Positions 23,633-55,621 of a stretch of DNA of 64,000 nucleotides are shown piece by piece. The notes under the pieces are model-generated. The model worked only from the letters and a program-made list of their open reading frames with translations. It did not search any database and was not told where the DNA came from. The DNA lies in the IMG/VR virus record IMGVR_UViG_3300033978_000437; one strand, written 5' to 3'. The stretch comes from a virus. Every line of letters begins with the position of its first letter. Position 1 is the first letter of the stretch. The translations under genes and the position numbers were made by a program.

Positions 23633-23648
23633 TCCTCGATTGTATTAC

Positions 23649-23858
23649 TTACTGATTATTAGAGTGCATCTGCTGTCTAAGTAAAGAAAGGCGCGCATTT
23701 ACAATGGCATTACCCAAGGCTGCTGCCACCTTTTCAACATCCGTTTCTTCTTCCTCTAGTGGCGTTTTCTTTTTCTTTTTCTTCATGGTAGTTGGAGGCA
23801 ACAAGTATGCTGCAGCATATTTTATGTCAAGCCCACCAAGCAATGGTTTATTCCACAT
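23649..23858 (-). CDS. Small protein with IKYA and EKVA motifs and poly-K/poly-E tract
   Basis: ATG 23858 with SD AGGTG. Confidence 0.5.
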   Translation of the reverse strand: MWNKPLLGGLDIKYAAAYLLPPTTMKKKKKKTPLEEEETDVEKVAAALGNAIVNARLSLLRQQMHSNNQ

Positions 23859-23945
23859 AATATTCACCTAAATTTAAAACTTGAAATTATTAGACTAGTT
23901 TAGCCACACAAGGGCTTGTACCGCAATACAAGCACTCAACTAATA

Positions 23946-26900
23946 TCATTTAGAACTTTCTGCCCATCCTCGATACTCCGCTAGATCTTCATTGTTAGTT
24001 CTCAATTGGGATTCTAGTTTCGCCCTTTGTTCTGGCGGAAGAGAAGTATCTCGAAGTTGTGCTTCAACTGCCACAATGTTTTCTTTAAGCCCATTAACTC
24101 GATTACGCATGTCCGTGCTAAACAAGCCCTTACCTGAAGAACCACCCTCTCGCTCGTAAGTACCCATCATCTGCTTACGCTGTGCCTGTCTATTTAATAA
24201 CTGCTCCTGCCTTGCTTGCCCCCCTGCGTCTAGCTCCCCCTTAGCTTTTAACTCTGCTAGTTCTGTGTCCGCAGCTGTAACCGAATTTTGCATGGCATCA
24301 CGGAATTTGTGTCCGCCACTACCAAACCAATTTTGTTGGCCTAGTCTCCAGTTAGCTGTTTCATCCGCTGTATTTCCTTGTCTAGTTTTAGCGTCTTGTA
24401 TTTGTGCTTTTAAATCTGCAGTACCTTCTAAATTCTGCGGTTTAGTCAAAGCTAATTGTGCTTCTAGACCTTTTTGCTTTTCTACTTCCATTGCATTAAC
24501 TTGCGTTTTGTCTGCCACCGAGGCACGGGAACGAGCATCAGTTCCAGTTACTTTGTCACGAATAGCTTCACCGGCCATCCCAGCCTGCTCCCCAAGCATC
24601 CCCGCTGTCTGAGTTGCACCCCCAGCTATTAGCTGCGCATTAGCCACTGGGTTAAGAGCTTGTGCAGGGGCTTGCCATGCTGTATGCAGCCCATCTTTAA
24701 ACGAAAGAATGTCTCTCCAGTTTTGTGCTGCATCATTGGTTGTATTATCCCAACCTTTATCTACTATGTCTGAACCAACGCTATAAGCTTCCATACCTGC
24801 ACCAAGGAATGGCAGAGCTTTTCCTACTCCTTTAGTAAGTGCTGAAAATCCTTTACCTACATAACCTGCAGGTGCTTTAGGTAATGGGGGTGGACCTTTA
24901 GGCAATGGCGGGGGGCTACCAGGCACAGGTGGTGGAGTTGTAGGAAAGGGGGGCGGGCTTCCGGGTATAGGAGGCGGAGTGGTAGGAAATGCAGGTGGTT
25001 TAGGTGCCATAATTGTATTTTTTATACCATTGTAGCCAATTGGAGCAGCATACCCAAATGCTGTACCTGTATCTGGACCCGAGCGGGCTGCTGGTTTTTC
25101 CTCTGTAGGCGAGTCTACTGTAGGAGCAGATGCTGTAGGGGCACTAGGCTGGGAACCGCCACCAAACATATTAAGCATGCTATTCCACATCCCACCTTGG
25201 TTTGCAGCTGGGGTAGGACTGCTGCTAGGTGCATTAGATTGCGGGCTTTGGTTTAAATTTTGTTGTCCTTGTCCGCTGTTGTTTTGGGCACCACCCCCAA
25301 ACATATTAAGCATATTACCCCACAACCCATTATTATTACTTGTAGCTAATCCTTGTGAGGGTCTCGAATTAAATAGCTGTTGAAAATTACCACCACCAGC
25401 CATCCCACCTAACATCATAAGCCCCATTAAAGGATTTTGATTTAACATCTGCCCAGCTTGCCCTGCAAAATTAGAATTATTTTGCATCAAATAATTAAAG
25501 TGATTAAATTGATCCGAATTTGAGGTTGGGGTAGGTGTAGATGCGGGCGGAGGGGCTAAAGCAGAAGTGCCCTGATCGCCCTTTGCGTCAGTATCTTTGT
25601 ATGTGTCATACAGTGATGGGGCGGGGGCAGGAGTAGGTGCAGGCGCAGGAGTAGGTGCAGGGGTAGGTGGCAGAGCTGGCATGATATTTGGGCTAAGGTC
25701 AGCTGCTGGGGTATAAGGATGAGGTTCAGTATTATTACGAGGGGCAACCCCGCCTTCCATATGTTCTGGGGAATTTGACCCATTCCTTGGGGCTGGTCCG
25801 CCCATATATTCTGTAGCAGGGGTATTGGGTATCGGTTTAGAGACGGCAGGAGGCTTAGAAACGGAAGGTGGTTTAGAAACATCTGGAACAGAGTCCATCG
25901 CAAGCTTAGTTTGGCCAGGGGTAAAACGACCGCCAAAAAAAGGAGCGTTGCTAGGTGCTATAGGCTTTAATGCAGGAGGAGTAGGAGTTGCAGGTAGCTC
26001 ATAGCTAGGTTTAGGTTTTATTACCGCATGGTCTTTACCTTCTCCAAAATCAAGACCCATTGCTAAACTAGGAACAAAGCTTGTACCTCGTTCTTCGCTG
26101 ATAGCCCCATGAGTCACAGAATCTAAGAAACTTTTCTTTAAACCAGACCCATACATTTGAGTCATCCAGTCAGGATCATGCTGCATTTGATACAAACCAC
26201 GAACCATGTGGGGCTCAAATGGCGGAGGGTTCTTGTGTACTGGAATTTCATTGATTTCAAAATCTTGAAAATTCTTAAGCATAGAAGGTCGAATTTTAGT
26301 ACCAATAGTGTAATGCAGTATAGGTCGTTCAAGATATTGACCTAGTGCTCGCTTAGGAGTTAATCGCTGGTGGTCTTCTCGTGGTTTGTAAGTGTGCTCA
26401 AGCGTAGAGTAAGGAACAATATCGTCAGGTACATGGTCATCTGTTTCTTCTGTCAGCCTTACATGGTTAATAAGACCTCGAGCTAATACCTCTATGTTTC
26501 GTCTGTGCCCGAACATTCCGCTGTCACCCATTGCCTTACGAAACTCATTAACAAAATAGCGTCTTCCTTCGCCTACCCCTTTGTGCTCTGTAATAGTAGC
26601 AGGGTTAGGAATTCCTGAGCTAATTACATCCCCAGCCTCTACCTCGTCTCCTTTTTTTACTTTAAGATCAAACCCAGCCCCTACATAATGTTGTTTATCT
26701 CCAATGGTTACATAGCTACCACCCGCAGGAGCTTCCTCAATACGCTGTACTACTCCATCTTTTAGTGCATGCGCTGCCCCGCCTTGCATCTTCTTTGGAA
26801 CTTGCACTAATTGGTTTAAATACTGGAAACCGCTGACAGCTTTTTCTTGACCTGCCACTCCACCCGAATGTTTTGCAGATAGCTGACCTTGGCTAATCGG

Positions 26901-27878
26901 TTCACTTAAAGCATGTGCAGCCTGTAACCCAACTTGCTCGCCAAGCCCTGGAAGCTTTCCAGTTTCCCGAATACCTACATCCCTAGAATAAACACCACCA
27001 TCGGGAGATCCACCTACGAGGGCAGATCGTACTAAGATTTTAGATGTGCCAAGCCGTTTTAAATGATTCAGTATTTTCGGAGTAAGGGGAGTGTTTCGAG
27101 CATAAGGGCCAACAGCCCGAGCTAGCAGTGCTCCTTCGTTATCTGCGTCATCAGTGTCTACTACCAATCCTCGAATAGGTGCATCTTCTGCCTCTTCGGC
27201 ATCTTCTCCGGTTACCACTAATCTATGGCTAGTTTGATTAAGTTGTTTGTTAAAAAATCCGGCATCTTGTGTGGCAAACTTAGTTGCCATAATACCTTTA
27301 CGTGCCCCATAGGTTCCGGCCCAATACTCGGCAGGGGACAACCCTTCGCTGTAGCTACGCAGTACAGGGATTGGAATCACATCATCCCGCTGATCCGAAT
27401 ACAGCATGTCTGAACCTAACAAACTAGTTAAATTCATAGACTTACCGCGCGTACCTGACATTACCTGCATCCCAAGCGGATTCTTATTTAGCAATGCCTC
27501 TGCAAGTACTTGTTTTTGTTGTTCTGGACTTTCTTTACCAACGGCACGAATAATCTGCTCATTTCGCTGCTGATCTGTCAAAGATTCGTCAGATAGAATG
27601 TTGGTAAGTGTTGCTCTAACTTTCTGGCGAGAAGCTAATGCCGCTTTGCTTACTTGCAAATGGCGAAGACCAAAAGACATGCCACCCTGCTCTTGAGCCA
27701 TGCTTTGGCCAAGACCACTTAGCTTAAAAGAAATGTCTTTATAACGCTCTGGGTGTTGTTGTGCCACTTGCTGTAATAAAGATTGCAGCCCTTTTTTATC
27801 TAGCACACGATGAGAGTCTCTCAACTCTTCCGGAAGGACATCATTAATTAACAGTTGTCCAACGGTCGTATTCAACAT
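23946..27878 (-). CDS. rpoC: Phage RNA polymerase beta-prime C-terminal subunit fused to a 650-aa low-complexity/helical tail
   Basis: Bridge helix GLSPAEYWAGTYGARKGIMATKFATQDAGFFNKQL; trigger loop AAHALSEPISQGQLSAKHSGG; RRNIEVLARGLI; tail starts at KLA-MDSV (aa 658-664). Confidence 0.9.
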   Translation of the reverse strand: MLNTTVGQLLINDVLPEELRDSHRVLDKKGLQSLLQQVAQQHPERYKDISFKLSGLGQSMAQEQGGMSFGLRHLQVSKAALASRQKVRATLTNILSDESLTDQQRNEQIIRAVGKESPEQQKQVLAEALLNKNPLGMQVMSGTRGKSMNLTSLLGSDMLYSDQRDDVIPIPVLRSYSEGLSPAEYWAGTYGARKGIMATKFATQDAGFFNKQLNQTSHRLVVTGEDAEEAEDAPIRGLVVDTDDADNEGALLARAVGPYARNTPLTPKILNHLKRLGTSKILVRSALVGGSPDGGVYSRDVGIRETGKLPGLGEQVGLQAAHALSEPISQGQLSAKHSGGVAGQEKAVSGFQYLNQLVQVPKKMQGGAAHALKDGVVQRIEEAPAGGSYVTIGDKQHYVGAGFDLKVKKGDEVEAGDVISSGIPNPATITEHKGVGEGRRYFVNEFRKAMGDSGMFGHRRNIEVLARGLINHVRLTEETDDHVPDDIVPYSTLEHTYKPREDHQRLTPKRALGQYLERPILHYTIGTKIRPSMLKNFQDFEINEIPVHKNPPPFEPHMVRGLYQMQHDPDWMTQMYGSGLKKSFLDSVTHGAISEERGTSFVPSLAMGLDFGEGKDHAVIKPKPSYELPATPTPPALKPIAPSNAPFFGGRFTPGQTKLAMDSVPDVSKPPSVSKPPAVSKPIPNTPATEYMGGPAPRNGSNSPEHMEGGVAPRNNTEPHPYTPAADLSPNIMPALPPTPAPTPAPAPTPAPAPSLYDTYKDTDAKGDQGTSALAPPPASTPTPTSNSDQFNHFNYLMQNNSNFAGQAGQMLNQNPLMGLMMLGGMAGGGNFQQLFNSRPSQGLATSNNNGLWGNMLNMFGGGAQNNSGQGQQNLNQSPQSNAPSSSPTPAANQGGMWNSMLNMFGGGSQPSAPTASAPTVDSPTEEKPAARSGPDTGTAFGYAAPIGYNGIKNTIMAPKPPAFPTTPPPIPGSPPPFPTTPPPVPGSPPPLPKGPPPLPKAPAGYVGKGFSALTKGVGKALPFLGAGMEAYSVGSDIVDKGWDNTTNDAAQNWRDILSFKDGLHTAWQAPAQALNPVANAQLIAGGATQTAGMLGEQAGMAGEAIRDKVTGTDARSRASVADKTQVNAMEVEKQKGLEAQLALTKPQNLEGTADLKAQIQDAKTRQGNTADETANWRLGQQNWFGSGGHKFRDAMQNSVTAADTELAELKAKGELDAGGQARQEQLLNRQAQRKQMMGTYEREGGSSGKGLFSTDMRNRVNGLKENIVAVEAQLRDTSLPPEQRAKLESQLRTNNEDLAEYRGWAESSK

Positions 27879-27905
27879 GGATAGTTCTCAGCGTGTGCAA
27901 ATTAT

Positions 27906-27923
27906 TTAAAATCTGGATTTTAG
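27906..27923. promoter_or_regulatory. Copy of 18-bp palindromic motif upstream of the RNAP beta-prime-C gene
   Basis: TTAAAATCTGGATTTTAG, 27 bp upstream of the ATG. Confidence 0.6.
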
Positions 27924-28489
27924 TCGTCACTATCGTCACCACCAAAGGCGGCTTCGATATCTTTAAGAGTAATTTCTTCACTCTTGCCACGCTTTGCTTT
28001 CTTACGAGATGGCTTAGGTTCATCTTGTATAATAGCAGCCGCCTCTGGCATACTCTCAACAACTTTGACTACTTCTTCTTTAATAGCTTCAGGAGCTAGT
28101 ATAGAAAAAGATATGGAGTCTGCCTGATCACGGGTTAATTCTCCCCGTCCAACCGACATGTCTACAACGATTTGCAGCTGTGTAATTATATATTCAGTGG
28201 CCTTCACTGTGATAAGCGTGGCTCCGTTTTCAAATTCAGCTTGTATGGCTGCGAGCCCATAGCAATTATCAAGTATTTCTAACTCTACTTCTTTTTTTGG
28301 AGGAAGTTGAAGTTTAGCAATAAGAGGGGCATCTTCTAATATAGGTAGTGACATCTCGGCATAATACTTATTATTAGAAGAGTTTAAGTTAGAAGATTGT
28401 TGATAAGTAGGAGCAGGGATAGCTGTAAGGCTAACCTCTGGTTTTCGGTCTCGATAGTAGCAGTCAGAAGATCGTAAAGAATCGTCCAT
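27920..28489 (-). CDS. Hypothetical protein
   Basis: 189-aa ORF between the RNAP genes. Confidence 0.55.
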   Translation of the reverse strand: MDDSLRSSDCYYRDRKPEVSLTAIPAPTYQQSSNLNSSNNKYYAEMSLPILEDAPLIAKLQLPPKKEVELEILDNCYGLAAIQAEFENGATLITVKATEYIITQLQIVVDMSVGRGELTRDQADSISFSILAPEAIKEEVVKVVESMPEAAAIIQDEPKPSRKKAKRGKSEEITLKDIEAAFGGDDSDD

Positions 28490-28490
28490 A

Positions 28491-28715
28491 TTACACCTGT
28501 ATCTTAGTAGAAATAACGGTTTCGTTAATACCTAGTTTACGCAAATTATCATTGAAACTGGCATCTTCACAATGAGACACCATAACGCTGGAAGAACCAC
28601 CAAAAAGTGCAGCTACGCTAACTGGAGTACCATCTAGCATACGCACTACAACCTGAGAAGCAGGTATCCTAAGTGGAGGTTTACCAATACTTTCAAGTAC
28701 CTCCACGATAAACAT
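28491..28715 (-). CDS. Small hypothetical protein
   Basis: 74 aa; SD AAGGGA. Confidence 0.55.
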   Translation of the reverse strand: MFIVEVLESIGKPPLRIPASQVVVRMLDGTPVSVAALFGGSSSVMVSHCEDASFNDNLRKLGINETVISTKIQV

Positions 28716-28727
28716 ATAATAAATCCC

Positions 28728-29462
28728 TTACTTGTTATTATTACGCATTAAAAGTGCAGTAGCCAACGCTGCTACACTGCCACTTTTAACAGAAGTATGT
28801 TGAGGGTAATAATCCGCAGGCAAGCTGAAAGCTGTACCACTTTCCCACGCCTCCGCTGACTTCATAGGAGCAATAGGTTGAATCTGCCCAAGACCACCAC
28901 CCGACTTACCATCGGGAGTAGCTGCCGCTAATCCTGGCCCACCTTGTGCAATCTGGTTTAAGTCTTCAGGTGTTACCACCATATCAGACACAGGTACATG
29001 GATGCCAAGTGCATCAATAATCTTAGCAAGCATTTTCTTAATCTGTACGATTTCGACATTGATGTCAATTTTAGGTTTAAGACCGGGGCCTGCGCCTTGT
29101 GGTTGCCCGCCACCATTAGCTGACATTGCTTGTTGCACTGCCTGTTGAACCATCGGCATTATTGCTGCCATGGGGTCCATAGGGGGAGGAGGTGGAGCAC
29201 CGCCACCCATAGAAGGATCCATAGGAGGAGGTGGGGCACCACCGCCCATAGAAGGATCCATAGGAGGAGCACCGCCCATTGAAGGGTCAGGAGGTGGAGC
29301 ACCACCGCCCATAGAAGGATCCATAGGAGGAGCACCGCCAGAAGGCATAGGAGCCCCCATAGCAGGATCGCCTGCCGCAACAAATGCATATTTAGATAGG
29401 TGTCGTTTTCCTACATGTTGTCGGGCCATCTTTAACAATTCCAAATTAACTGCCATAAACAT
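28728..29462 (-). CDS. Scaffold-like Pro/Gly/Met repeat protein
   Basis: Four DPSMGG(G)APP repeats after LSKYA; likely start at ATG 29456 given SD spacing. Confidence 0.65.
   Translation of the reverse strand: MFMAVNLELLKMARQHVGKRHLSKYAFVAAGDPAMGAPMPSGGAPPMDPSMGGGAPPPDPSMGGAPPMDPSMGGGAPPPPMDPSMGGGAPPPPPMDPMAAIMPMVQQAVQQAMSANGGGQPQGAGPGLKPKIDINVEIVQIKKMLAKIIDALGIHVPVSDMVVTPEDLNQIAQGGPGLAAATPDGKSGGGLGQIQPIAPMKSAEAWESGTAFSLPADYYPQHTSVKSGSVAALATALLMRNNNK
29171..29345 (-). repeat. Coding tandem repeat (PMDPSMGGGAPP)n
   Basis: Repeated CCCATAGAAGGATCCATAGG-type units on the plus strand. Confidence 0.85.
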
Positions 29463-29528
29463 ACTCCTTGTGTGATCTCATCTTATGATTCTAAGTTCTA
29501 ATCAAAATCTAGGATAGAGATATATTGC

Positions 29529-32500
29529 CTAACCATTTAAAATTCGTACGGGATCGTTGATCGAAATATCTCCACGTGCATGCGCTCGTCTTACATCCTG
29601 TATATTCTGGAAAATCCTTAATGGTCGATCAGATTTACGAGAAGGATCTGTACCCATAAATAAACCACCAATGTACTCATTAGCAGGGGCATGCATTACA
29701 GACTTCATATCACCCACACTAAAAAGATTACGACTTGGCAATAAGCGGTCAAATGCTTCTTGCCTAGCTTTTTCCGTACTTGGCACATGATAGTTCATGG
29801 TGTCGCCATCAAAGTCAGCACCAAATCCCTTCACGATCAAAGGACTTACTTGTAGGGTATTCCCTTTAGTCAATCTTGGCCTCATCGCCATAATCCCAAA
29901 CTTATGCAAAACAGGAGCACGACTAATATATACAGGACGATGCTCCATCTCTTCAAGCAAGAATTTGCGTGCTACCGGAGTCTTATCTTCTAATTGAGTA
30001 CGAGCCTGCAGCATCGACATGCCTTGTCGCACCAATCTTCTAGTAACAAATTTCTCATAGACCTTAAATGCTTTATCTTCGGGCAGCCCTACCGAGTCCA
30101 TGTCCAATTCCGGATTTGGAGTAATTACCGCTCGACCTACATTGTCTACCGTAGACGAAATCAGTTTGCGTTGTACAACCCCGAACTTAGGGCTTGCACC
30201 AAACACATTTTTTAAAGCCCCACGAACATTCTTCTCTTGGCTTTTTGCACTAATAGGATCACCTAACCCAGTCACCGCTTTAAATGCTTGATAGGTAGAA
30301 AGACGCTCCGATCCCGAAGCTTCTTCCCCTACTTCTTGCTGCATTTTGCTAAAATTCTGATTAGCCTCAAACAGTTCTTTATAAAGGTGATTAGCGTCGT
30401 TAACCAATGGCATGCCATTGCTCATCAAGCTAACTGGACGAAACATTGGAGGAAGAACTGGCACTTTGGTCAGCATGTAGTCCGCAGGCTTCAGCCCTAG
30501 TTTATGTGCAGATTTAAAATAGCTAAGCTTACGAATTGCGGCATCTCGTTGCGCCCCTCGCCCTGCGGCTATCATAGCTCGAGCTTTAGGGATTTCTGCT
30601 TCTGGATTAAGATTCTCTAATGCCTTTTGTAAAGCTTTCGTACCGGTGCCATATTTCTCTAAAAATTCTGTACCTGCCACAATGCCTTCAAACTTTTTCT
30701 GTGTTAGCCCAAGCATATGACGAATAGGTTCTTCCATTACTGGGTTAGGTAAAGGTTCGTGCAAACGCATAAACGACCAACGAGTGCCCCCGTGTCCACC
30801 AGTTTTAGCCTTGTCAAATAAGCCACCATTAATCTCTTTAAGCTGATTTCCCCATTCTACTCCGTCTGCGCTGCTAAGCTCACGATCCCCAGCTAAGTTG
30901 TCAATGTCCTTGTCCGTCAATGCCATGATTTGAGTCTGCGTTCCTTGCTTAACCACATTAACTCCAGCAGATTGCAGCTGGGCTACAAACTTCTGATAAG
31001 CAAAAGGAACTTTAGTAACCTTAGGGTTATACCCAGACATGTACTGCATCCAATAATCATCATTCTTCTGCCTACGAATTGTAAAAATGTCCTGCAGTGT
31101 GTCCGTAGCTCCGTGAGAAAGTAATGCGTTGGCATCCATTAGCCCAATACGCTTAGAACCTTCAACACCACCTTTAGCCGGTGCATCTTCCATCGTGTAA
31201 GCTCCACCACTTCTACCTTGTCCTTTAGACTCAGAGGTGTGATGCAGTTTCATGAAGAAACGATTACCCGTTGCCACATTTTTAATTTTTTGATCTTTAG
31301 ATGGGTCTATAATGTCTTCTAAGTCCGACAAACCTTCCTTAGCTAATTCTTGCATAACCCATTGAGTCATATCTTTTTTAGTGTCAAAATCATCCACCTT
31401 AATAGGCATGCCACGCTTAGCTGCTATTTTACCTAGAAACAATTCAGACATTTGAGCTGGGTTGGTTCGGCTAATAATCCCAAGAGGATTAAGAAGCACT
31501 TCAAAAGGTTGTTTATTTGAATCATGGGGCATTTCGCTATCTGGGATGATGTCAGCAATAACACCTTTATCCCCATAACGACCCGACAGCTTATCTCCAA
31601 CCTGCGTTGGCGATTCTGCCTTAACTACAACGACTGGACCTTTCTTACCCATTACCACATCAGTAACAACACCACTATCGTGATGCTGCCAAAGTACTGC
31701 TGCGTCGTTGAATCCAGATTGACCCTTCTTATGCACTTTGTTGTATACATTTTCCTTTTGTGTGATCCCCAATACCAAAGGATCTCCAAAGTTAACTACT
31801 GTACCAGGCTTGACCACTCCTTGATCGTCTATGTTCGCTAATATGTCTTTTTTAAAGGTAGCTGGAAATGCTTGAATAAATTGTCTTTTACCGACTTGTG
31901 TTTTGTCATCCACTTCCAACTCATGCTGGTACATATGGGAAGAAGCTGTCTTCTTTGCAAAGCTTTCTGAGATAACAACCGCATCTTCAAAGTTTTTACC
32001 CTGCCATGGGATATAGGCAGTGCGAGCATTTCGGCCTAAAGCCATTGTTCCAGTACTGTCCGTGAAGTTAGAGCTAGCTAATAACTGATTTGGTCTAAAT
32101 GTGTCACCGGGTTTAACTGCGGCAGTTTGATGAAAAAAGGTTTTACGATTGAAAGGAAAATTATGATAAAGTTCGTGCGTTTCTTCTGTTCCGTCTGCAT
32201 TACGCACTTTAATCTCTTCATCCGTCACCGAGGTAACTGTACCTCCTTGTGTTGCCCTTAAAGCTCCCATCCCAGATGAGTATAGCTCTTCATAACTTTG
32301 TTTACCGCCTGTGTGCGGAACTGCAGACTGTACCAAAGGAGCTTCAGGAGAAGCTAAAGGTAATGCTTGTGTGGTCATACGAGATGCCATCACTAATCGC
32401 TGACCTTTTACCTGACTCTTCATGGGGATGACATTAGAAAGAGGATTAAATGCTTCTTCCATGTCAGGAAGCTCTAAATCAATGCTTGATTTAGGTACAT

Positions 32501-33995
32501 GTAACATCTTACCGCCACGCATCGCCACTACACGGGCATCTTCACCATCTTGGCTTCCGGGAAAACCAACGGTTAAGTCTGCTACATCTTGAGGAGTTTT
32601 AAAAGTCATTTCCCCGCTACGCAGATCCTTAAACTGAGCATAGAGCTTACCATCGCTTCCTTTACGAGATCCCCTAGCTAGATATGTGTCCACCCCTACA
32701 CGACCCGACTCGGGAGTACGCACAGGATCCACATAACCCAACATGCTTGACTGTACATTTCTGGATTCCATGGGAATTGCATCCATAGAACCAATACCAC
32801 CCTCACCCACTCGAGTAACAGACATTGTCTTTTCATAAATGTCTGTAGGATTAATTTCTTCAATCGCTTGCCCTAGCCCGCTACCGAGCAAAGCACTTTT
32901 TAACTGTTTTTCTAATGCTGAAGACGGCATCGAATCCAAATTACCTTTGCCTGACATCTTCCACAGTAGGTTACGGCGAACCCCGCCTTTATCTCGTGCA
33001 ATACGCTCTGAAAACAAATCTTCTGGACCTACAAACTGCTGAAAATGCAGTGCATCTCTATCATCCGGATCCGCTTCCTTTCTATTAACCTTTATCAGCT
33101 TTTTGGTAATGTCCATCAATGTGTCTAGTGTGACACCTGAATGTGGGTTTCCCAGCGTGCGACGATTTACCTCGGGATCCATTTCCATCTTAGAAAACTT
33201 AGCAAGCAATGCTTGTTTTTGTTTTTCTTCTGGTTCAGCTAGTTCTTTAGAAGAAAGAAACATGCCTTTAAGTCTTGTATACTCAGATGCATCATCCGAA
33301 TTGTAATTAGAAGCGAATAGATCTTTACCCCAAGCTTCCTGCGCCTGCTCCGAGGTAACTCCCATAGCTTTTAACAAAGGAGTTAATCCAACTGAAGCTT
33401 GCCCAACCTTAAGCTTAAATTTGCCTTTCTCAGGGTCTAAGAAATAACGCTGTGATACGCCTTTTCCAGGCATCACATTAACATGGGATTCAATTTCACC
33501 ATTGTTCCGTGTGCGGGTGTAAACTCCGGGCAGTAACCGCTGTTGATTTCTTAAAATGTACTCAGTGCCATTGTTAATAAAGGTACCACGCTCCGTTAAG
33601 TGTGGGACAGTGGCAAGAACTGATTTCTTGGAGGCTATCACTTGCTGTGTTGCATTATCCATTAACTCCCAAGTTCCTTCTAACCTACGACCTTGAGACC
33701 TACCATTAAGAATAGCAGCTTTCTGCTCCTGCTTGCTGGCGGTATCCCCATCACGATAGTTTACTCCAGTTAAACTAAGCGTATGTCGGTCATTAGATAT
33801 AGGTTGTACTTGCTGTGCTGCTTGCAACACTCTGTCATAAATAATAGATTTGACTTTTTTGGTGTCGTGAAATTCATGAAAACTAGGCAATGGAGCTGCA
33901 GGCTGCATTGTTTGTAGAAGCTGTGCCTGTTGTGGCACCCCGCCTAGCAACGAGATGTTAGCAGTATCAAACAAATTAGACGAAAGTGGAAGCAT
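29529..33995 (-). CDS. rpoB: Phage RNA polymerase beta subunit fused to the N-terminal (catalytic) half of beta-prime
   Basis: Beta motifs GTFINNGTEY, DPVRTPESG, IPWQGKNFEDAVVISE, GDKLSGRYGDKGV, LNPLGIISRTN, FMKLHH; then beta-prime motifs PVLPPMFRP, GRAVITPNP, SRAPVLHKFG and catalytic GADFDGD (29802-29822). Confidence 0.95.
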   Translation of the reverse strand: MLPLSSNLFDTANISLLGGVPQQAQLLQTMQPAAPLPSFHEFHDTKKVKSIIYDRVLQAAQQVQPISNDRHTLSLTGVNYRDGDTASKQEQKAAILNGRSQGRRLEGTWELMDNATQQVIASKKSVLATVPHLTERGTFINNGTEYILRNQQRLLPGVYTRTRNNGEIESHVNVMPGKGVSQRYFLDPEKGKFKLKVGQASVGLTPLLKAMGVTSEQAQEAWGKDLFASNYNSDDASEYTRLKGMFLSSKELAEPEEKQKQALLAKFSKMEMDPEVNRRTLGNPHSGVTLDTLMDITKKLIKVNRKEADPDDRDALHFQQFVGPEDLFSERIARDKGGVRRNLLWKMSGKGNLDSMPSSALEKQLKSALLGSGLGQAIEEINPTDIYEKTMSVTRVGEGGIGSMDAIPMESRNVQSSMLGYVDPVRTPESGRVGVDTYLARGSRKGSDGKLYAQFKDLRSGEMTFKTPQDVADLTVGFPGSQDGEDARVVAMRGGKMLHVPKSSIDLELPDMEEAFNPLSNVIPMKSQVKGQRLVMASRMTTQALPLASPEAPLVQSAVPHTGGKQSYEELYSSGMGALRATQGGTVTSVTDEEIKVRNADGTEETHELYHNFPFNRKTFFHQTAAVKPGDTFRPNQLLASSNFTDSTGTMALGRNARTAYIPWQGKNFEDAVVISESFAKKTASSHMYQHELEVDDKTQVGKRQFIQAFPATFKKDILANIDDQGVVKPGTVVNFGDPLVLGITQKENVYNKVHKKGQSGFNDAAVLWQHHDSGVVTDVVMGKKGPVVVVKAESPTQVGDKLSGRYGDKGVIADIIPDSEMPHDSNKQPFEVLLNPLGIISRTNPAQMSELFLGKIAAKRGMPIKVDDFDTKKDMTQWVMQELAKEGLSDLEDIIDPSKDQKIKNVATGNRFFMKLHHTSESKGQGRSGGAYTMEDAPAKGGVEGSKRIGLMDANALLSHGATDTLQDIFTIRRQKNDDYWMQYMSGYNPKVTKVPFAYQKFVAQLQSAGVNVVKQGTQTQIMALTDKDIDNLAGDRELSSADGVEWGNQLKEINGGLFDKAKTGGHGGTRWSFMRLHEPLPNPVMEEPIRHMLGLTQKKFEGIVAGTEFLEKYGTGTKALQKALENLNPEAEIPKARAMIAAGRGAQRDAAIRKLSYFKSAHKLGLKPADYMLTKVPVLPPMFRPVSLMSNGMPLVNDANHLYKELFEANQNFSKMQQEVGEEASGSERLSTYQAFKAVTGLGDPISAKSQEKNVRGALKNVFGASPKFGVVQRKLISSTVDNVGRAVITPNPELDMDSVGLPEDKAFKVYEKFVTRRLVRQGMSMLQARTQLEDKTPVARKFLLEEMEHRPVYISRAPVLHKFGIMAMRPRLTKGNTLQVSPLIVKGFGADFDGDTMNYHVPSTEKARQEAFDRLLPSRNLFSVGDMKSVMHAPANEYIGGLFMGTDPSRKSDRPLRIFQNIQDVRRAHARGDISINDPVRILNG

Positions 33996-34015
33996 TCATA
34001 AAACTCTAAATAAGA

Positions 34016-34810
34016 TTATATGGCATGAGGAATAGCATAAATTTCAGGAGGCTGTACTAATGCCTGCCGACGTGCTCTTTCCTCCACAGCCTCATCCAAT
34101 ATCGCACGCCTGCTATTCTTCTTCATTGCTTTATTGACCAAATAGTAACCAGCAGGAACACTTGATAATAACCAAGTTAAAGCTAACCCTTTGCTAATAC
34201 CAGAAGCGTTTGGAAAAGTAGAATTAAATGTGTCAGAGATAGCTCCAACAGGATCTAATGCCGACTTTTGACTGTACCCTGCAAATGCTCGATCTAAATA
34301 ATCATCAGTTCCTTTCTTATATGCGCCTAATAAAGCTTCCTCATACTTCTTTTTTGAGGCTTCAAGTTTTGCTTTGCTTTCTTGTTCTTTTGCTCTGTTT
34401 AACAAAAGATCCACACCTTTCCACCCGCCATAAGCAGCAAGCGGAGCTCCTAAAAGCATACCAGGCAAATAATAGTCTAAGCCATAAGGAGAAGTTGCTC
34501 TAGAATTCGAATCAATAGCATTTTTCTCTTTTGGGTAAGCTACTGGCATATCAATTACGCGTGGCCCCTTTTTAGGATTTTTTGTATTATCAAAAAGTCC
34601 TGTAATCCCTCGAACTGCAGCTCCTGCCCCTACGCCTAATGCTAATGTTTTAAGAATACTTTTAATTGCATCAGCTTGCATTTGCTGATTAACTTGAGTT
34701 CTGAGGTCTTCACCAATTGCACCTACTGGAGTAACAATGGGGGTTGCTGCAGATTTTTCAACTTTAATTTGTTTCAATAACTTTTTTGCACTTGTCTTAT
34801 TCATGTCCAT
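34016..34810 (-). CDS. Three-TM glycine-rich virion/membrane protein
   Basis: EKSA, EKNA, QKSA motifs each followed within about 20-35 aa by a hydrophobic Gly/Ala segment; no Cys. Confidence 0.6.
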   Translation of the reverse strand: MDMNKTSAKKLLKQIKVEKSAATPIVTPVGAIGEDLRTQVNQQMQADAIKSILKTLALGVGAGAAVRGITGLFDNTKNPKKGPRVIDMPVAYPKEKNAIDSNSRATSPYGLDYYLPGMLLGAPLAAYGGWKGVDLLLNRAKEQESKAKLEASKKKYEEALLGAYKKGTDDYLDRAFAGYSQKSALDPVGAISDTFNSTFPNASGISKGLALTWLLSSVPAGYYLVNKAMKKNSRRAILDEAVEERARRQALVQPPEIYAIPHAI

Positions 34811-34814
34811 ATCC

Positions 34815-35189
34815 TTATGGGGTAGAGGAAGAAGGCATCAAGCAAGGATTACCATCTTCTAAGAAATATTCGAGCCATTCTGCATAGATATAATGATGCT
34901 TATCCTTCTCTTCTCGCCATCTCTCGATAAATACCAACTGATACCAAGAATTTGCCACACCATCCATGACTTTTAAATACGCTTGATTCTGTTCATTGTC
35001 TCCAGTGTAAAATGTAGCATTTTTAGGGTCTGCTACTCGTACTAGTCTATCTTCATACTCTTCGTTTTTATAAAGAGGTGCTTGATGCCCACGAAAAGGC
35101 AAACCATCTACATCCGCACGATCCCAAAATAATTGGCCTCGTTCGTTACCTTCTTTGCGATTCGTAAACTTCACTAAACTATTCGCCAT
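34815..35189 (-). CDS. Hypothetical protein
   Basis: 124 aa; SD AGAGG. Confidence 0.6.
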   Translation of the reverse strand: MANSLVKFTNRKEGNERGQLFWDRADVDGLPFRGHQAPLYKNEEYEDRLVRVADPKNATFYTGDNEQNQAYLKVMDGVANSWYQLVFIERWREEKDKHHYIYAEWLEYFLEDGNPCLMPSSSTP

Positions 35190-35204
35190 CTTAGCCTCTT
35201 CTAG

Positions 35205-35585
35205 TTACAGAAAAATACGCCCAGTACTTTTACGCTTTGCTTTATAATCTTGTCGTTCTTTCTGCCTTTGCAGCTGTCCTGCTAATCTTTCATAAGTGTC
35301 TTGCAACTCTTGCCGTTTAATGTTTTCAATTCCTCGGCTACCTTCTGTGTCTGCAGCTTGGTTAGCAAAGTAAGCAGCAATACCGCCAATGGCCGGAGGA
35401 ATTGCTAAACCTGCCATCAAATAAGGAGCAATAGATCCAGCTGCGCTTACAGCGTTATTAACTTCACCCATGGGGCTAAACAAACTTGCAGCCATTTTAG
35501 ACAAACCATGTGTCTGCTCAGGGCTCATTCCCTCTTCAACACACCTAGACAAAAACCCAAGTTTAAATGCTTCGTGTACTTGCAT
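35205..35585 (-). CDS. Small single-TM protein with EAFKLGFLSRCVEEG...SKMA leader
   Basis: ATG 35585 with SD AGGAG; TM-like YLMAGLAIPPAIGGIAAYFA. Confidence 0.6.
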   Translation of the reverse strand: MQVHEAFKLGFLSRCVEEGMSPEQTHGLSKMAASLFSPMGEVNNAVSAAGSIAPYLMAGLAIPPAIGGIAAYFANQAADTEGSRGIENIKRQELQDTYERLAGQLQRQKERQDYKAKRKSTGRIFL

Positions 35586-35596
35586 TAAATAATCTC

Positions 35597-35995
35597 CTAG
35601 AACGCAACACTTTTGCCACTGGTCAAACAAGATGGCATAATTACAGTGACAGGCAAACTCATCGCCTTGTGTCTCTGCACCGTAGGATCATCAGGGGCAC
35701 CCTGCTCCCTTGCTTTATGTACTAAGTCTAATGCTTGTTCGATGAAACGCATATGCCGTTCCACCTCATCTTGGTGCATAAAACCTTCATTATCTTTACT
35801 GCGACCATTAGACATCATATCGTTGATGCCTTGCAATCGCAGAAGAAATTCTCGAATAGACACCACTCCATAGCTGTTGTTCCGAGAATCTTCCCAATGG
35901 AGTTGCCCTCGTTCCGCCCACCAACGAACCGCTTTTGGGTTAGTTCGAGGACCAAAGAAAACAACCCCATTATTCGTTCCAAGCAATACAGTCAT
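35597..35995 (-). CDS. Hypothetical protein
   Basis: 132 aa; SD AAGGTG. Confidence 0.6.
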   Translation of the reverse strand: MTVLLGTNNGVVFFGPRTNPKAVRWWAERGQLHWEDSRNNSYGVVSIREFLLRLQGINDMMSNGRSKDNEGFMHQDEVERHMRFIEQALDLVHKAREQGAPDDPTVQRHKAMSLPVTVIMPSCLTSGKSVAF

Positions 35996-36003
35996 ATCAC
36001 ACC

Positions 36004-36021
36004 TTAAAATCTAGAATTTAG
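36004..36021. promoter_or_regulatory. Copy of 18-bp palindromic motif
   Basis: TTAAAATCTAGAATTTAG overlapping the upstream stop codon and the downstream SD. Confidence 0.55.
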
Positions 36022-36449
36022 AAAATCATAACAGGCTTAGCCCTTGCTGCCATTTTAACAGCTTGAGGCTCGTTACTAGTATCTTCAGCTATCCAGCCCA
36101 TCTTTTCAAACACATTAAATATAGAATCTGTAGCCCCGTCAATTGTGGAAAGTAGCAATGACTTTATAGTGGAATCCACCATGGGCTCAAGCATGTTAGG
36201 AACACCAATGATATCGATTGGAGCAATCACGGTATCGTAGAACTTATCCAGCCCAGCTAACACTAGCTGCTTTTTTTCCTCACGGCTACCCTGCCCTGCT
36301 ATTTCTACAAGTCGCACAAGGGTGGCTGCCCCGTTGTACAATAACCCAAGCACTTCTGAATAAGTTATTTTTCCGTCTGCTGTATACCCCTTATAGCGAT
36401 CAACCATCGCAAGGATTGTTTGTTCCAACTGTTCTTGTACTGTAGCCAT
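36018..36449 (-). CDS. Hypothetical helical protein
   Basis: 143 aa; SD AAGGAG. Confidence 0.65.
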   Translation of the reverse strand: MATVQEQLEQTILAMVDRYKGYTADGKITYSEVLGLLYNGAATLVRLVEIAGQGSREEKKQLVLAGLDKFYDTVIAPIDIIGVPNMLEPMVDSTIKSLLLSTIDGATDSIFNVFEKMGWIAEDTSNEPQAVKMAARAKPVMIF

Positions 36450-36465
36450 AACTATCTCCTTATAC

Positions 36466-37581
36466 TTAGTTAAAAAGACGAGGCACTATACTATTAATCA
36501 CACCTAGGGTAGCCCCAGTTTGCCCTAATGTAGCTTGCGTTCCGCCAGGCATGCCAGTTAGTAATCCAAGGCCATAACCAACTGTACGCCCAGTAATGTA
36601 ACCTTTAAGTCCGCCACCTGCGGCACCCATGGCCATACCAAATAACCCAACTTGGTGTGGGGTTACCATTCCTGGGCTTGAATTGGGATCTTGCATTTGC
36701 CCTGCCCCATATACTGCTCCCATTGTCATAGCTGTGGTTTGAGGACTTGCATTAGTCCCCCAAAGAACTTGCCCAAGCTCGTTTGTGCGGATCAAGGGCA
36801 TTTCAGTAAAAGAAGGACCACCAATAGTCCCAAAGGCATCACTAGAATGCTTAGATATAAAGTTTGCCACCGCCTCCTTATACTTTACGGAAGTAGGCAA
36901 CTTATCTTCAAATCCGTCTTCGGGAAAACCTTTAAAAAGAGTTGGATCATTAAATTCTCGACCTTCGTGCAGATTTATTAAACCGGGTACTGAACCTACT
37001 AAAGCTCCACCTGCTCCGCCTAATAAAGCCAGCCGTTTTCGTAAAGTACCTTTAGTCTGTGCCCAGTCTGGCAATACTTGTTCACCTAACCAACCTGCCC
37101 CATACCCAAGACCTGTACCTATAAGCCCGCTGGCAACCATAGCTGCAATAGGTCGTCCACCATAGCCGGGAATGTCTTTGCTTGGAAAAAATTGAGCTAG
37201 TTCTCCTAATCGTCGTATAGTTGGGGAGTAAGCTACCTTTACCCACCAGTCATGTAAATCGTAAGGTGTCAAAGGCTCAGAATGCACTCGGTCTGTTCCA
37301 AGCTTTTCTGTTAAAAGCCGTAGACCCCAATCAAACTCTTCTTGGTTTAGTACTGGGCGTACATACATGCCAGCCTTTTCAAGAGCTGGATTCCAGTAAA
37401 TACCTATATCTGTTTTTGTGTATAAAGGAGACACTATCCGTCTTATGATTTGAGCCGGAGCAGCACACTTCTCGGCCAAGTAATCAATAGTGCCGGGAAA
37501 ATCAGCGTATAACCCTAAATCTAGAGTCTGTTCGACATTTAAATTAGGTAACTCGCTATCGTATGCCACATGCTTATCCAT
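36466..37581 (-). CDS. Glycine-zipper membrane-type virion protein
   Basis: SGLIGTGLGYGAGWLG, LLGGAGGALVG, FGMAMGAAGGGLKG, VGYGLGLLTG; EKCA, VKVA, SKHS motifs. Confidence 0.6.
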   Translation of the reverse strand: MDKHVAYDSELPNLNVEQTLDLGLYADFPGTIDYLAEKCAAPAQIIRRIVSPLYTKTDIGIYWNPALEKAGMYVRPVLNQEEFDWGLRLLTEKLGTDRVHSEPLTPYDLHDWWVKVAYSPTIRRLGELAQFFPSKDIPGYGGRPIAAMVASGLIGTGLGYGAGWLGEQVLPDWAQTKGTLRKRLALLGGAGGALVGSVPGLINLHEGREFNDPTLFKGFPEDGFEDKLPTSVKYKEAVANFISKHSSDAFGTIGGPSFTEMPLIRTNELGQVLWGTNASPQTTAMTMGAVYGAGQMQDPNSSPGMVTPHQVGLFGMAMGAAGGGLKGYITGRTVGYGLGLLTGMPGGTQATLGQTGATLGVINSIVPRLFN

Positions 37582-37597
37582 TGAGTTACAAGTACAA

Positions 37598-37625
37598 AGC
37601 CATGCGTCAAAGATGACACATGGCT
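37598..37625 (-). terminator. Hairpin downstream of nrdJ
   Basis: AGCCATGTGTCA/TGACGCATGGCT 12-bp stem with one G-U pair. Confidence 0.5.
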
Positions 37626-37672
37626 AACTATCTTACTCCATTTATACCCTGCATAGCTAGACTAAGCTAGGC

Positions 37673-42730: not shown

Positions 42731-42940
42731 TTAACCTTCCGTCCACCCCTGTTTGTAGCCCCACAATCCCACCTCTAACTTAGAGGAAAGATTTAGTTTT
42801 TTACGGATACGTTTAACATAAGTCTTAATTGTTTCATAGCCAAGATTAAGCTTTACTGCAATGTCTTTGTACTTTAAGTTTTTACTGATTAGTATGACTA
42901 TTTCCCGTTCTCGTGCCGTCAACCCTTTGTCTTGCTGCAT
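42731..42940 (-). CDS. Stand-alone LuxR/GerE-type HTH DNA-binding protein
   Basis: LTAREREIVILISKNLKYKDIAVKLNLGYETIKTYVKRIRKKLNL. Confidence 0.88.
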   Translation of the reverse strand: MQQDKGLTAREREIVILISKNLKYKDIAVKLNLGYETIKTYVKRIRKKLNLSSKLEVGLWGYKQGWTEG

Positions 42941-42961: not shown

Positions 42962-43738
42962 TTAAAATAAAGTGGTACTATCCATGTATTCGAGCACATC
43001 ATGAGGCGCCGCACTTTTCAGCTCGGTCCAATTCATCACTCGACTGCGAACATCCCTACGCTGTACTCGTTTTTGGTTGGGCAAACATGCTGGGCTAAAC
43101 TTTAACTCCAAAAACTCTAACAGATTCTCTAAGACACCTCGAAAGTCTAAAAGTAACTCATGATAGGGAATAACAGCTCGGTCTGGGCAAAGCCTATTAA
43201 CTTTAGACATAGCTGCAGTGTGGTCCCGCACAAATTGCGTTAGTTCTGCAGGTTCAATGCAAATTGCAGGTAAGCGGTCACTACTACTAATTTCCACATT
43301 ACCCTCCCTTTGCTGCTGCTGTTTCCACGCAACATAACAAGCAATAGGATTACGCACAACATGCACTAAACAGAAATCGCCACGGCGACAACGCTGGTCC
43401 GTATAATCCCACAAATCGTAATGGCGTAAGTGTTCGTAATTGACCTTTACCCCGACGGCCTTTTCGCCATGCAGTATGTTGTCAAAAATCTTGTTATTGA
43501 AGTATTGTTCAACGCTTAGATGGGTGGGATCAAAATGGTCAATGATTTTACCAGTAGTCCCAAAGTACATGGAATGTTCGACTTTTCTAACCTTGTCATC
43601 ATCGTGAAGCAGATCGCCATGACAAACTATGTCAGGGTGTGCAGCTAAAGAAGACTGTAATAAACCATACCCCGAATGCCGATTTCCGATCACCATAAAA
43701 TTAAGAATTTCTGCGTTTTCTCGGTTGTACCAAGCCAT
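42962..43738 (-). CDS. Sulfotransferase-like protein (Stf0-type), PAPS loop diverged
   Basis: FMVIGNRHSGYGLLQSSLAAHPDIVCHGDLL; VHVVRNPIACYVAW; IPYHELLLDF. Confidence 0.7.
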   Translation of the reverse strand: MAWYNRENAEILNFMVIGNRHSGYGLLQSSLAAHPDIVCHGDLLHDDDKVRKVEHSMYFGTTGKIIDHFDPTHLSVEQYFNNKIFDNILHGEKAVGVKVNYEHLRHYDLWDYTDQRCRRGDFCLVHVVRNPIACYVAWKQQQQREGNVEISSSDRLPAICIEPAELTQFVRDHTAAMSKVNRLCPDRAVIPYHELLLDFRGVLENLLEFLELKFSPACLPNQKRVQRRDVRSRVMNWTELKSAAPHDVLEYMDSTTLF

Positions 43739-54100: not shown

Positions 54101-55621
54101 CTAAAGTTCCTTAAGCAAATCTAGAAACTTGTCATTTAGCTGCTGCTTACGATTACCCGCCGCAATGAGGTAATCATCGGTAGCAGATAAAGGATTAACT
54201 TTAATTCCGATGTAGCGTAGTAGAGACTTTAATCGACTTGGGGCTGTTCTAGCTATATATCTCTCTATCTTTACTTTCCTATCTGCAAGAGGAAGGTGGG
54301 CATGACTGTCATACCTTAATCCTCTACCTTCACTCTGCTCAGACCTAACATTATTCCAATGCGGATCCAATAGCTGCATAAGCTTCGTACCCTTAAACGA
54401 AAGTCCCTCAGTACCAGACGGACCAAGCAACGCTACCTTCAGCTTATCTGAGTTGTAGTCGTCTACCAGCTTCTTTCGTTGTTTGTCTGATAGTGCACCT
54501 GTGAAGGACGCTGCAGGGATACCAGCTTTGTCCAACGCAGCTTGATAAGGGTTCAGTCCTGACTCAATAAAGTTAGAGAAGATGAGAGCTTTACCCTTGG
54601 GATCCTTTTTAACCAACTCATTAACTCTTCTAAATGCTTCTGTTAGCTTTGGGGAACTGTTGAACGCAGCCATAGGGTCAGCTTTGTCTTGTGTGAATGT
54701 GCTAGTAGATAAACCCAGCTGTCTTGGCCCAGTCAAAAAGCTAACCATCTTCTTAGACTCTGCATCACTCAGCGGGTAGTTTAATTGCAACTTCCATTTG
54801 AGCAAGGCGGGTAGCTTACCATACATTTGTGAGTTTAGGTCCGTCTGATCCCTAGTCATCTCTGTAATCACATCTTCCCTATTGATCTCTGCTTGAGGCT
54901 TAGCTGGTGCAAAGTAATCTACCTTGCCTCTTAAGTTGTTCTTTAACTCCTCTACATTCTTTAAACCCGGATCGGGTGCCTTTAGATTAAAGAAACGGCG
55001 ATACAGCGAAGGTTGTGGGTCATTGTCTACATACCTAGCACTAAACTCTTCTGGAGTCGTATCCTTGCCGGTAAGCACGCTGTAAGGCACTGCAAAATCC
55101 GCAGGCGAGTTCACAATAGGAGTACCGCTTAGCATCACCACTTGTTTTGCTTTTCTAGCTGCGTCTAACAAATTCTGCGTCTGCGCAGATTGAGCGTTTC
55201 TAAACCGATGTGTTTCATCAATAAGCAACGAATTAGGATTCGCTATAGGAAGTCCTCTGCCTAGCCCAGTATGGCTCATAATGCTGCTAGGCACTGCCGT
55301 ATCTTGGTCGATGAACTTCTCTTGCTCTTTCCTTAGATTGGTACGGAGAGCAGCGGGTACGATTGCGGTGTAGGGGAGCTTCGAGCTTTCAGCAGCCGCT
55401 AAACCACCTAAGGTCTTACCCGAGCCCAGCCCTTGATACAGTAGCAATCTAACCTTGTCCTCAGTAGCAAGCTGATTTTGCACATTGCGTACAACTCTTT
55501 TTTGATGAGGTTGCAGCTCAATTCCAGAATTTAAATCTGCACGCTTGGTGAAACTCAACTTAGCAGCTTGCGTTGCTAAATAGGCAATTGCGTCAAAGGT
55601 ATTACTGGAGCGTTTAAACAC
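54101..55621 (-). CDS. SNF2-family helicase/ATPase with N-terminal leader
   Basis: LQPHQ, YQGLGSGKT, LLIDETH, MLSGTP, QSEGRGLR; leader ends TKRA (aa 28); no Cys. Confidence 0.88.
   Translation of the reverse strand: MFKRSSNTFDAIAYLATQAAKLSFTKRADLNSGIELQPHQKRVVRNVQNQLATEDKVRLLLYQGLGSGKTLGGLAAAESSKLPYTAIVPAALRTNLRKEQEKFIDQDTAVPSSIMSHTGLGRGLPIANPNSLLIDETHRFRNAQSAQTQNLLDAARKAKQVVMLSGTPIVNSPADFAVPYSVLTGKDTTPEEFSARYVDNDPQPSLYRRFFNLKAPDPGLKNVEELKNNLRGKVDYFAPAKPQAEINREDVITEMTRDQTDLNSQMYGKLPALLKWKLQLNYPLSDAESKKMVSFLTGPRQLGLSTSTFTQDKADPMAAFNSSPKLTEAFRRVNELVKKDPKGKALIFSNFIESGLNPYQAALDKAGIPAASFTGALSDKQRKKLVDDYNSDKLKVALLGPSGTEGLSFKGTKLMQLLDPHWNNVRSEQSEGRGLRYDSHAHLPLADRKVKIERYIARTAPSRLKSLLRYIGIKVNPLSATDDYLIAAGNRKQQLNDKFLDLLKEL

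Follow-up and report, generated by a model that had tools for sequence, protein, structure and literature searches.

A phage gene joining RNA polymerase beta to the catalytic half of beta-prime

Multisubunit RNA polymerases (RNAPs) are among the most conserved of molecular machines, and natural changes in their subunit boundaries are few. The known cases are a split in cyanobacteria, a fusion in Helicobacter, splits in archaea and the fragmentation seen in phages of the phiKZ type. In the rpoBC genes of Helicobacter and Wolbachia, the C-terminus of beta is joined directly to the whole of beta-prime in one open reading frame (ORF), and the product works with alpha and omega. Reviews of jumbo-phage RNAPs describe beta and beta-prime as each being split, with no sigma and two sets per genome, and place the beta-prime cut where the cyanobacterial cut lies; a fusion of beta to the N-terminal half of beta-prime is not mentioned in them (PMC7598289, PMC7824862, PMC13282480). 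One of the two enzymes of the phiKZ/AR9 type is packaged in the virion (PMC7598289, PMC7824862). The present analysis concerns a 64,000-nucleotide stretch of viral DNA (the window) from the IMG/VR record IMGVR_UViG_3300033978_000437. The source record, from an uncultured phage, has 178,753 bp and is about 83% complete. A gene on the minus strand of the window, at 29529-33995, was found to encode a complete beta followed, on the same chain, by the N-terminal catalytic half of beta-prime. The remainder of beta-prime was found in a second gene downstream.

The fusion gene and its partner chain

The features of the two polymerase genes are given below in window coordinates, with residues numbered in amino acids (aa).

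29529..33995, minus strand: fusion gene P0001 (chain 1), 1488 aa; complete beta, then the N-terminal catalytic half of beta-prime
30939..33995, minus strand: beta portion, aa 1-1019; C-terminus placed by alignment with E. coli rpoB
31560-31598, minus strand: conserved lysine motif of the beta barrel, GDKLSGRYGDKGV, aa 800-812; intact, within the double-psi barrel
30906..30962, minus strand: beta/beta-prime junction, aa 1012-1030; no linker, first 17 or so beta-prime residues absent
29532..30938, minus strand: N-terminal half of beta-prime, aa 1020-1488; approximately E. coli beta-prime 18-560
30771-30827, minus strand: site at which the four-cysteine, N-terminal Zn-binding domain of beta-prime is deleted (GGLFDKAKTGGHGG...); a short GHGG turn instead, by alignment with E. 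coli
29802-29822, minus strand: catalytic GADFDGD, aa 1392-1398; 90 aa before the stop, aspartate triad intact
27920..29462, minus strand: three intervening genes, of 244, 74 and 189 aa; order kept within the clade
23946-27878, minus strand: gene P0002 (chain 2), 1310 aa; begins 1650 bp downstream of the fusion gene
26019..27878, minus strand: C-terminal half of beta-prime, chain 2 aa 1-620; family conservation to about aa 622
27213-27338, minus strand: bridge helix, chain 2 aa 181-222; residue-level alignment
26850-26942, minus strand: trigger-loop helix, chain 2 aa 313-343; residue-level alignment
23946..26018, minus strand: chain 2 tail, 690 aa; low-complexity P/A/G-rich, Q/N-rich, helical/coiled-coil

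The original prediction, made from the letters of the DNA, was that one ORF runs from beta into beta-prime and ends about 90 aa after GADFDGD. This was borne out by an uninterrupted reading frame of 1488 codons without internal stops and by Pfam and PDB matches to both subunits. Rpb2_3, Rpb2_6 (aa 582-935, E 4e-50), Rpb1_1 and Rpb1_2 (aa 1334-1414, E 1e-23) were all matched on the single chain. In a PDB sequence search, aa 120-1036 corresponded to a nearly full-length beta (8syi_C, cyanobacterial, residues 96-1074 of 1100) and aa 1111-1486 to beta-prime, the top matches of the latter being the cyanobacterial gamma subunit (RpoC1; residues 184-552 of 624). The core features of cellular enzymes were both present, namely a beta-type double-psi barrel with its lysine pair and a beta-prime barrel with the DxDxD Mg-binding loop. 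AlphaFold2, given 53 homologues, modelled aa 560-1488 with a mean predicted local distance difference test score (pLDDT) of 86.5 and a predicted template modelling (TM) score (pTM) of 0.73. In Foldseek, one half of this model was matched by beta chains (about 500-540 columns) and the other by gamma chains of cyanobacteria (560 columns, target TM 0.61). Pfam, PDB, alignment and AlphaFold2/Foldseek agree that beta and an rpoC1-like half of beta-prime are carried on one polypeptide, and the predicted placement of both double-psi barrels on one chain was thereby confirmed.

The junction was placed with MAFFT, by aligning chain 1 to E. coli rpoB and rpoC (K-12 record), gp206 of Salmonella phage Arash and D69_0261 of Vibrio phage D69. 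In the alignment with E. coli, the C-terminus of beta falls at aa 1019 of chain 1 and beta-prime starts at the next residue. The pLDDT over the junction was 83-92 and the model showed ordered strands there. No cysteine was present in either polymerase chain; Arash gp206 has one and D69_0261 has two.

The end of chain 1 corresponds to approximately residue 560 of E. coli beta-prime. The start of chain 2, TTVGQ..., was equated by eye with E. coli TTVGR... near residue 586, and about 20-25 loop residues of E. coli beta-prime (roughly 562-582) are matched by neither chain. The cyanobacterial gamma extends about 70 residues beyond the end of phage chain 1 (gamma residue 552-558 of 624). Residue 5 of RpoC2 aligned to residue 23 of chain 2, and the start of chain 2 is about 18 residues ahead of the RpoC2 start. 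The split had been predicted to be near the rpoC1/rpoC2 point, and this was correct for the region but not for the exact position, as chain 1 stops about 70 residues short of the gamma terminus. By these alignments, the phage and rpoC1/rpoC2 cuts share an inter-domain region but differ in exact place.

A catalytic motif reading GADFDGD rather than NADFDGD was likewise found as predicted, but did not prove to be a special feature of this enzyme. NADFDGD was present in 74 and GADFDGD in 37 of the first 121 homologues, others having M or L at the second position, and in Arash and D69 the motif is AADYDGD. The three aspartates were invariant in every full homologue checked. In cellular enzymes the first position of the motif (aa 1392 here) is an asparagine, which contacts the ribose of the substrate. 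As judged from the homologues, this position is relaxed across the family and the glycine is not peculiar to the window phage. The alternation of N, G and A suggests a relaxed constraint on that residue.

The bridge helix and the trigger loop were found where they had been predicted, in a separate gene about 1.65 kb downstream. Chain 2 aa 1-495 corresponded to the C-terminal half of beta-prime (8dy7_D, residues 658-1169) in the PDB sequence search and matched Pfam Rpb1_5. The bridge helix and trigger loop were aligned to E. coli beta-prime 716-955 and to Staphylococcus 657-1107. No polymerase homology was found in chain 2 past about aa 620. The length of the tail was highly variable among the homologues of chain 2, which have 723-1966 aa in total. 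Some of these homologues bear extra Pfam domains (PF18905, PF18823).

The three genes between the polymerase halves encode a G/P/M-rich low-complexity protein (244 aa), a beta-rich protein (74 aa) and an acidic protein (189 aa). Homologues were found at the same position in L005 (43/59/29% identity, 59% being that of the 74-aa protein) and in L007 (36/34%). The three proteins gave 0 Pfam or PHROG matches, contained no endonuclease or intein domains and had no similarity to the gap genes of Arash or D69. A protein atlas look-up for the 74-aa protein returned nothing usable. Alpha- or omega-like subunits were considered as an identity for the gap proteins, and the idea was dropped as no supporting evidence was found. 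The contents of the gap differ between phages, with nine genes in Arash, two tiny ORFs in D69 and three genes in the window phage, and the gap seems to be an insertion hot spot. The Arash gap from gp206 to gp216 (L001:13508-17879) holds an opposite-strand block (gp207c-gp211c, gp214c) and small glycine-zipper-like proteins, among them the virion protein gp213.

Distribution and cultured relatives

A scripted domain count found the arrangement of beta plus the N-terminal half of beta-prime in 256 of 264 homologue clusters, and the C-terminal half of beta-prime in 0 of the 264. Conversely, all 120 homologues of chain 2 among the matches listed carried Rpb1_5 and neither a beta nor a beta-prime N-terminal domain. 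A word-indexed search with chain 1 aa 900-1488 gave 120 clusters at 57-97% identity, almost all about 1470-1500 aa long and nearly all with both Rpb2_6 and Rpb1_2. An exhaustive HMMER search of 50%-identity representatives gave 1591 proteins at E<=1e-30. In all of the best 150 of these 1591 (43-69% identity) the match spanned from the C-terminal region of beta to the protein's own C-terminus, and many of the 150 were longer than chain 1, up to 3350 aa. On independent contigs the order of fusion gene, three to five small genes and gene for the C-terminal half of beta-prime was retained. Recurrence on this scale far exceeds chance. The layout is real, conserved and widespread across hundreds of phage lineages, and is not an assembly artefact.

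The architecture had been called re-split. The fusion and the split were both confirmed, but the implied order of events was not, as no fully fused beta and beta-prime was found among the 264 fusion-chain homologues and the 120 listed homologues of the C-terminal half.

Several longer homologues of both polymerase genes carry intein/LAGLIDADG domains (PF14528, PF14890, PF03161, PF05203). These include P0054, P0055, P0086, P0093, P0102 and P0108, and P0298, P0324-P0330, P0338 and P0363. The window copies of both genes are free of inteins.

A megablast search with window positions 23000-36000 gave no match in 50,697 phage records, so that no close cultured relative was found. More distant relatives were found by tblastn against phage genomes, in which four records covered 94-95% of chain 1 at 29-30% identity: Salmonella phage Arash (OQ632216) and Vibrio phages D69, D148 and D181. 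Arash gp206 has 1525 aa and is annotated 'RNA polymerase subunit beta', with a separate gp216 of 606 aa; the D69 counterpart of the latter has 609 aa. The split that the original prediction proposed to look for in phage genomes is thus present in Arash and D69. In the MAFFT alignment, the junction and the deletion of the Zn-binding domain in Arash gp206 and D69_0261 were the same as in the window phage.

In a tree of the N-terminal half of beta-prime, all 25 fusion-type rows, Arash and D69 included, formed one clade with a support of 99 in the Shimodaira-Hasegawa-like approximate likelihood-ratio test (SH-aLRT). Outside this clade were five bacterial sequences and Rhizobium phage Y65, which has an unsplit beta-prime of 1127 aa. 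The tree was a quick maximum-likelihood tree, midpoint-rooted and thinly sampled, and gives no source for the fusion clade. Its topology suggests that the layout arose once.

In Vibrio phage D181 (L017:4902-5850) a homing-endonuclease insert of about 950 bp breaks the fusion gene after about 514 codons. The resulting pieces have 514 aa and 1006 aa, and the copy in the sister phage D69 is intact. D181 is a present-day example of splitting of this polymerase by a mobile element, and illustrates a way in which such cuts can come about.

No description of the layout was found in searchable papers (subscription-only papers not covered). The original prediction had named an earlier description of the architecture as something that would refute it; none was found in these papers, yet the genes of cultured phages are already in GenBank under the plain labels beta and beta-prime. 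The paper on Arash names the two chains beta and beta-prime and is silent on the fusion (PMC10585845). The layout is a rearrangement of a cellular-type RNAP, with genes known from cultured phages and a fusion that is unremarked in the searchable literature. It marks hundreds of phage lineages from many sample sources, and the cultured members infecting Salmonella and Vibrio make it directly testable.

Genome context, virion packaging and alternatives

Three further genes bear on how the polymerase may be used.

G000:C1:155648-156385, about 9 kb outside the window: sigma-like protein, 245 aa; adjoins a baseplate gene
42731..42940, minus strand: stand-alone helix-turn-helix (HTH) protein of the GerE / sigma-70 region-4 type, 69 aa; GerE 44.8 bits, Sigma70_r4_2 35.8 bits, both over the Pfam cut-offs
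54101..55621, minus strand: SNF2-type helicase; Pfam Helicase_C and SNF2-rel_dom; 32% identity to Arash gp217 by blastp, E 1e-63

One beta barrel and one beta-prime barrel were found in the 178.7-kb record, which corresponds to a single multisubunit RNAP set. Profiles for alpha and omega (PF01193, PF01000, PF01192) gave no match in the record at E<=1; the controls gave matches in 14 of 14 genomes. A profile for T7-type RNAP (PF00940) also gave no match in a search in which the controls likewise gave none. The prediction that neither alpha nor sigma would be found in the window held for alpha, omega and a full sigma gene, all of which are absent from the 64 kb, but has to be qualified by the 69-aa HTH protein inside the window and the sigma-like protein outside it.

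The sigma-like protein was only just above the Pfam threshold (Sigma70_r3, 25.5 bits; cut-off 25.3). It corresponds to regions 2-4 of cyanobacterial SigA (residues 193-371, E 2e-5) and is homologous to Arash gp10 (E 1e-15). It was seen by eye to contain no cysteine. No homologue of gp196, the second sigma of Arash, was found. A single weak match to PF04542 (sigma region 2) in the genome was rejected as a sigma because the protein is exonuclease-like. From its profile matches, the 69-aa HTH protein could be a minimal transcription factor for the phage polymerase, resembling sigma region 4. The SNF2-type helicase, which is shared with Arash, is a likely partner of the polymerase. A sulfotransferase-family protein (42962-43738, minus strand) is encoded near the small HTH gene and is an unusual accessory enzyme for a phage.

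The window phage and Arash have in common the terminase, portal and capsid proteins, both polymerase chains, a sigma-family protein and the SNF2 helicase. The polymerase genes stand at the head of the structural module, directly upstream of homologues of the Arash virion proteins gp218, gp222, gp226, gp233, gp234 and gp236, which are in the same order in both phages. Among these, gp226 is the major capsid protein of Arash (E 7e-34 for the window homologue). A family-2 glycosyltransferase (10206-11426, minus strand) adjoins the capsid gene and is a further unusual accessory enzyme.

Scans for sigma-70-type promoters and terminators in 23000-38000 gave results at chance level, except for a hairpin at 37598-37625. 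This strong, terminator-like hairpin on the minus strand has a 12-bp stem and is downstream of a class II-like ribonucleotide reductase gene with an ATP-cone (37673-39952, minus strand). It is upstream of the block of small genes leading to the polymerase gene, a transcription unit that may begin at this point.

Taken together, these results are best read as a two-chain, sigma-dependent core that is probably packaged in the virion and injected, and we put the probability of this reading as a whole at about 0.72. Chain 1 would contribute a compact, complete beta and the part of beta-prime that ends about 90 residues beyond the Mg-binding DFDGD loop. Chain 2 would supply the rest of beta-prime, that is the bridge helix, the trigger loop and the C-terminal parts of the clamp, in addition to its 690-aa tail. 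The two chains would assemble into a canonical core, like the two halves of cyanobacterial beta-prime. That they form a functional core is very probable. The covalent tether between beta and the N-terminal half of beta-prime may stand in for the assembly platform that the alpha dimer otherwise provides. Work by Severinov and colleagues in 1996-97 reportedly showed that artificially tethered E. coli beta and beta-prime are functional, and that beta-prime split after the barrel is functional too. The idea of a tether replacing alpha agrees with this reported behaviour. Promoters would be recognised by the 245-aa sigma-like protein of the phage. The enzyme would be packed into the capsid, delivered with the DNA and used for transcription of early genes, as in Arash.

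Packaging in the window phage is reasonably probable by analogy with Arash. In mass spectrometry of purified Arash virions, Gp206 gave 3516 spectra, the most of any protein, and Gp216 gave 1210, Gp217 1148 and the sigma Gp10 467 (PMC10585845). Several points weigh against the proposed reading. The Arash authors allow that abundant late proteins may be contaminants of the virion preparation (PMC10585845), and packaging is carried over here from a relative at only 29% identity. The record is about 83% complete, and the missing part could encode an alpha-like protein or a second polymerase. Divergent analogues of alpha or omega would evade the Pfam models, and three conserved gap genes are without an assigned role. 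No phage-specific promoter motif was found, as a k-mer search of 55 intergenic regions gave only the ribosome-binding motif.

The two-chain polymerase could also be real without being carried in the virion. It would then be made during infection for middle and late genes, and the host RNAP, perhaps redirected by the phage sigma, would transcribe the early genes. The sigma-family protein of the phage could in principle serve the host core, and highly expressed enzymes may merely co-purify with particles, as the Arash paper points out (PMC10585845). In phiKZ-like phages, a packaged polymerase is accompanied by a second set that is not in the virion (PMC7598289), and the window phage has only one set. 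However, the fusion protein exceeded the capsid protein in number of spectra from Arash virions, and the partner chain, sigma and helicase were found alongside. The polymerase genes are, moreover, within the structural module in both Arash and the window phage. This explanation was considered unlikely, though not negligible.

Cleavage of the fusion protein by the head protease or another protease, giving separate beta and beta-prime N-terminal chains and a mature enzyme of three chains, was judged very improbable. The virion polymerase subunits of phiKZ-like phages are processed by head proteases, and this is what speaks for cleavage here. No cut-site motif of the K-x-A type was found at the junction, however, and the only K-x-A-[AST] sites of chain 1, at aa 682 and 856, are within the conserved part of beta. 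The junction itself is conserved, has no linker and was modelled as ordered strands with a pLDDT of 83-92.

Rejoining of the two beta-prime halves into one chain, with the 1.65-kb gap acting as an intron or mobile insertion or with split-intein ends, has hardly any remaining probability. Inteins are frequent in the homologues of both polymerase genes, and a homing-endonuclease insert interrupts the fusion gene of Vibrio phage D181. Polymerase homology nevertheless reaches the last residues of chain 1 and begins at residue 1-4 of chain 2, so that there is no space for intein halves. The gap is occupied by three conserved protein-coding genes without endonuclease or intein domains, and the split is retained in every relative with differing gap contents. 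An assembly or sequencing artefact, by which a stop separating neighbouring beta and beta-prime genes was lost, has nothing in its favour except what could be said of any metagenomic contig, and can be dismissed as the same unbroken layout with a conserved junction sequence is present in hundreds of independent assemblies and in the complete Arash and D69 genomes.

The packaged two-chain core can be extended to a wider proposal, which is put forward tentatively, at odds somewhat worse than even. A very large and mostly uncultured group of phages with genomes of 150-235 kb would have a third, independent design of phage-borne cellular-type RNAP. Its tether would replace the alpha platform, and it would lack both the N-terminal Zn-binding domain of beta-prime and cysteine. 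It would be loaded into the capsid with sigma and helicase and ejected, making early transcription independent of the host, and the N/G/A position of the motif would reflect an altered handling of the substrate sugar. The phages offer a natural experiment on what keeps an RNAP core together without alpha and an enzyme of two chains that is tractable in vitro. They are also a probable further case of a phage carrying its own transcription machinery in the particle.

Comparison with known polymerases

The beta-prime of cyanobacteria and plastids (rpoC1/rpoC2) is cut after the catalytic barrel, as in the phage, with the bridge helix and trigger loop on the second chain. In contrast to the phage enzyme, the cyanobacterial enzyme has a free-standing gamma and a separate beta, together with alpha and omega. 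The phage cut is also about 70 gamma residues earlier. The rpoBC of Helicobacter and Wolbachia shares with the phage the direct joining of beta to beta-prime, but the phage chain stops 90 aa after the catalytic loop.

RNAPs of the phiKZ/AR9 type resemble the phage enzyme in having a bacterial-type core without alpha or omega and a beta-prime split after the barrel (PMC7598289, PMC7824862). They differ in that beta is in two or three unfused chains, in having two paralogous sets and in having no sigma-family factor, whereas in the window phage there is a single set, beta is intact and a sigma-like protein is encoded.

The mReC phages and the Rhizobium phages of the Kleczkowskaviridae are, like the window phage, tailed phages with a cellular-type beta and beta-prime that can be aligned to the bacterial subunits. 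In the mReC study, entries with beta of about 1009-1563 aa and beta-prime of about 903-1038 aa are reported as separate ORFs (Weinheimer and Aylward 2020, PMC7481178). The filter of that study demanded NADxDGD, and beta and beta-prime were handled as separate proteins (PMC7481178). Filters that demand NADxDGD or separate beta and beta-prime ORFs can overlook a large phage group. Rhizobium phage Y65 differs from the window phage in its unsplit 1127-aa beta-prime.

The crAss-like gp66, YonO and the tape-measure RNAP of P23-45 also have both barrels on one polypeptide, and the crAss and P23-45 enzymes are reported to be virion-borne. The single-chain RNAPs have diverged strongly, with most domains of the cellular type lost. 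In the phage enzyme, by contrast, beta and beta-prime are recognisable at E 1e-40 to 1e-69, and a second chain is needed for the bridge helix and trigger loop.

The closest systems are Arash and Vibrio phages D69, D148 and D181, which share with the window phage the two-chain layout, the junction and the loss of the first Zn-binding domain. Homologues of the sigma, SNF2 helicase, portal, terminase and capsid proteins are shared as well, and the polymerase is beside the structural module. The Arash and Vibrio phage enzymes differ from that of the window phage in sequence (29-30% identity), in a C-terminal half of beta-prime of about 606-609 aa without the long tail and in the motif AADYDGD. The layout of these phages unites a fusion and a split in one enzyme without detectable alpha or omega, and the N-terminal Zn-binding domain of beta-prime has been dropped.

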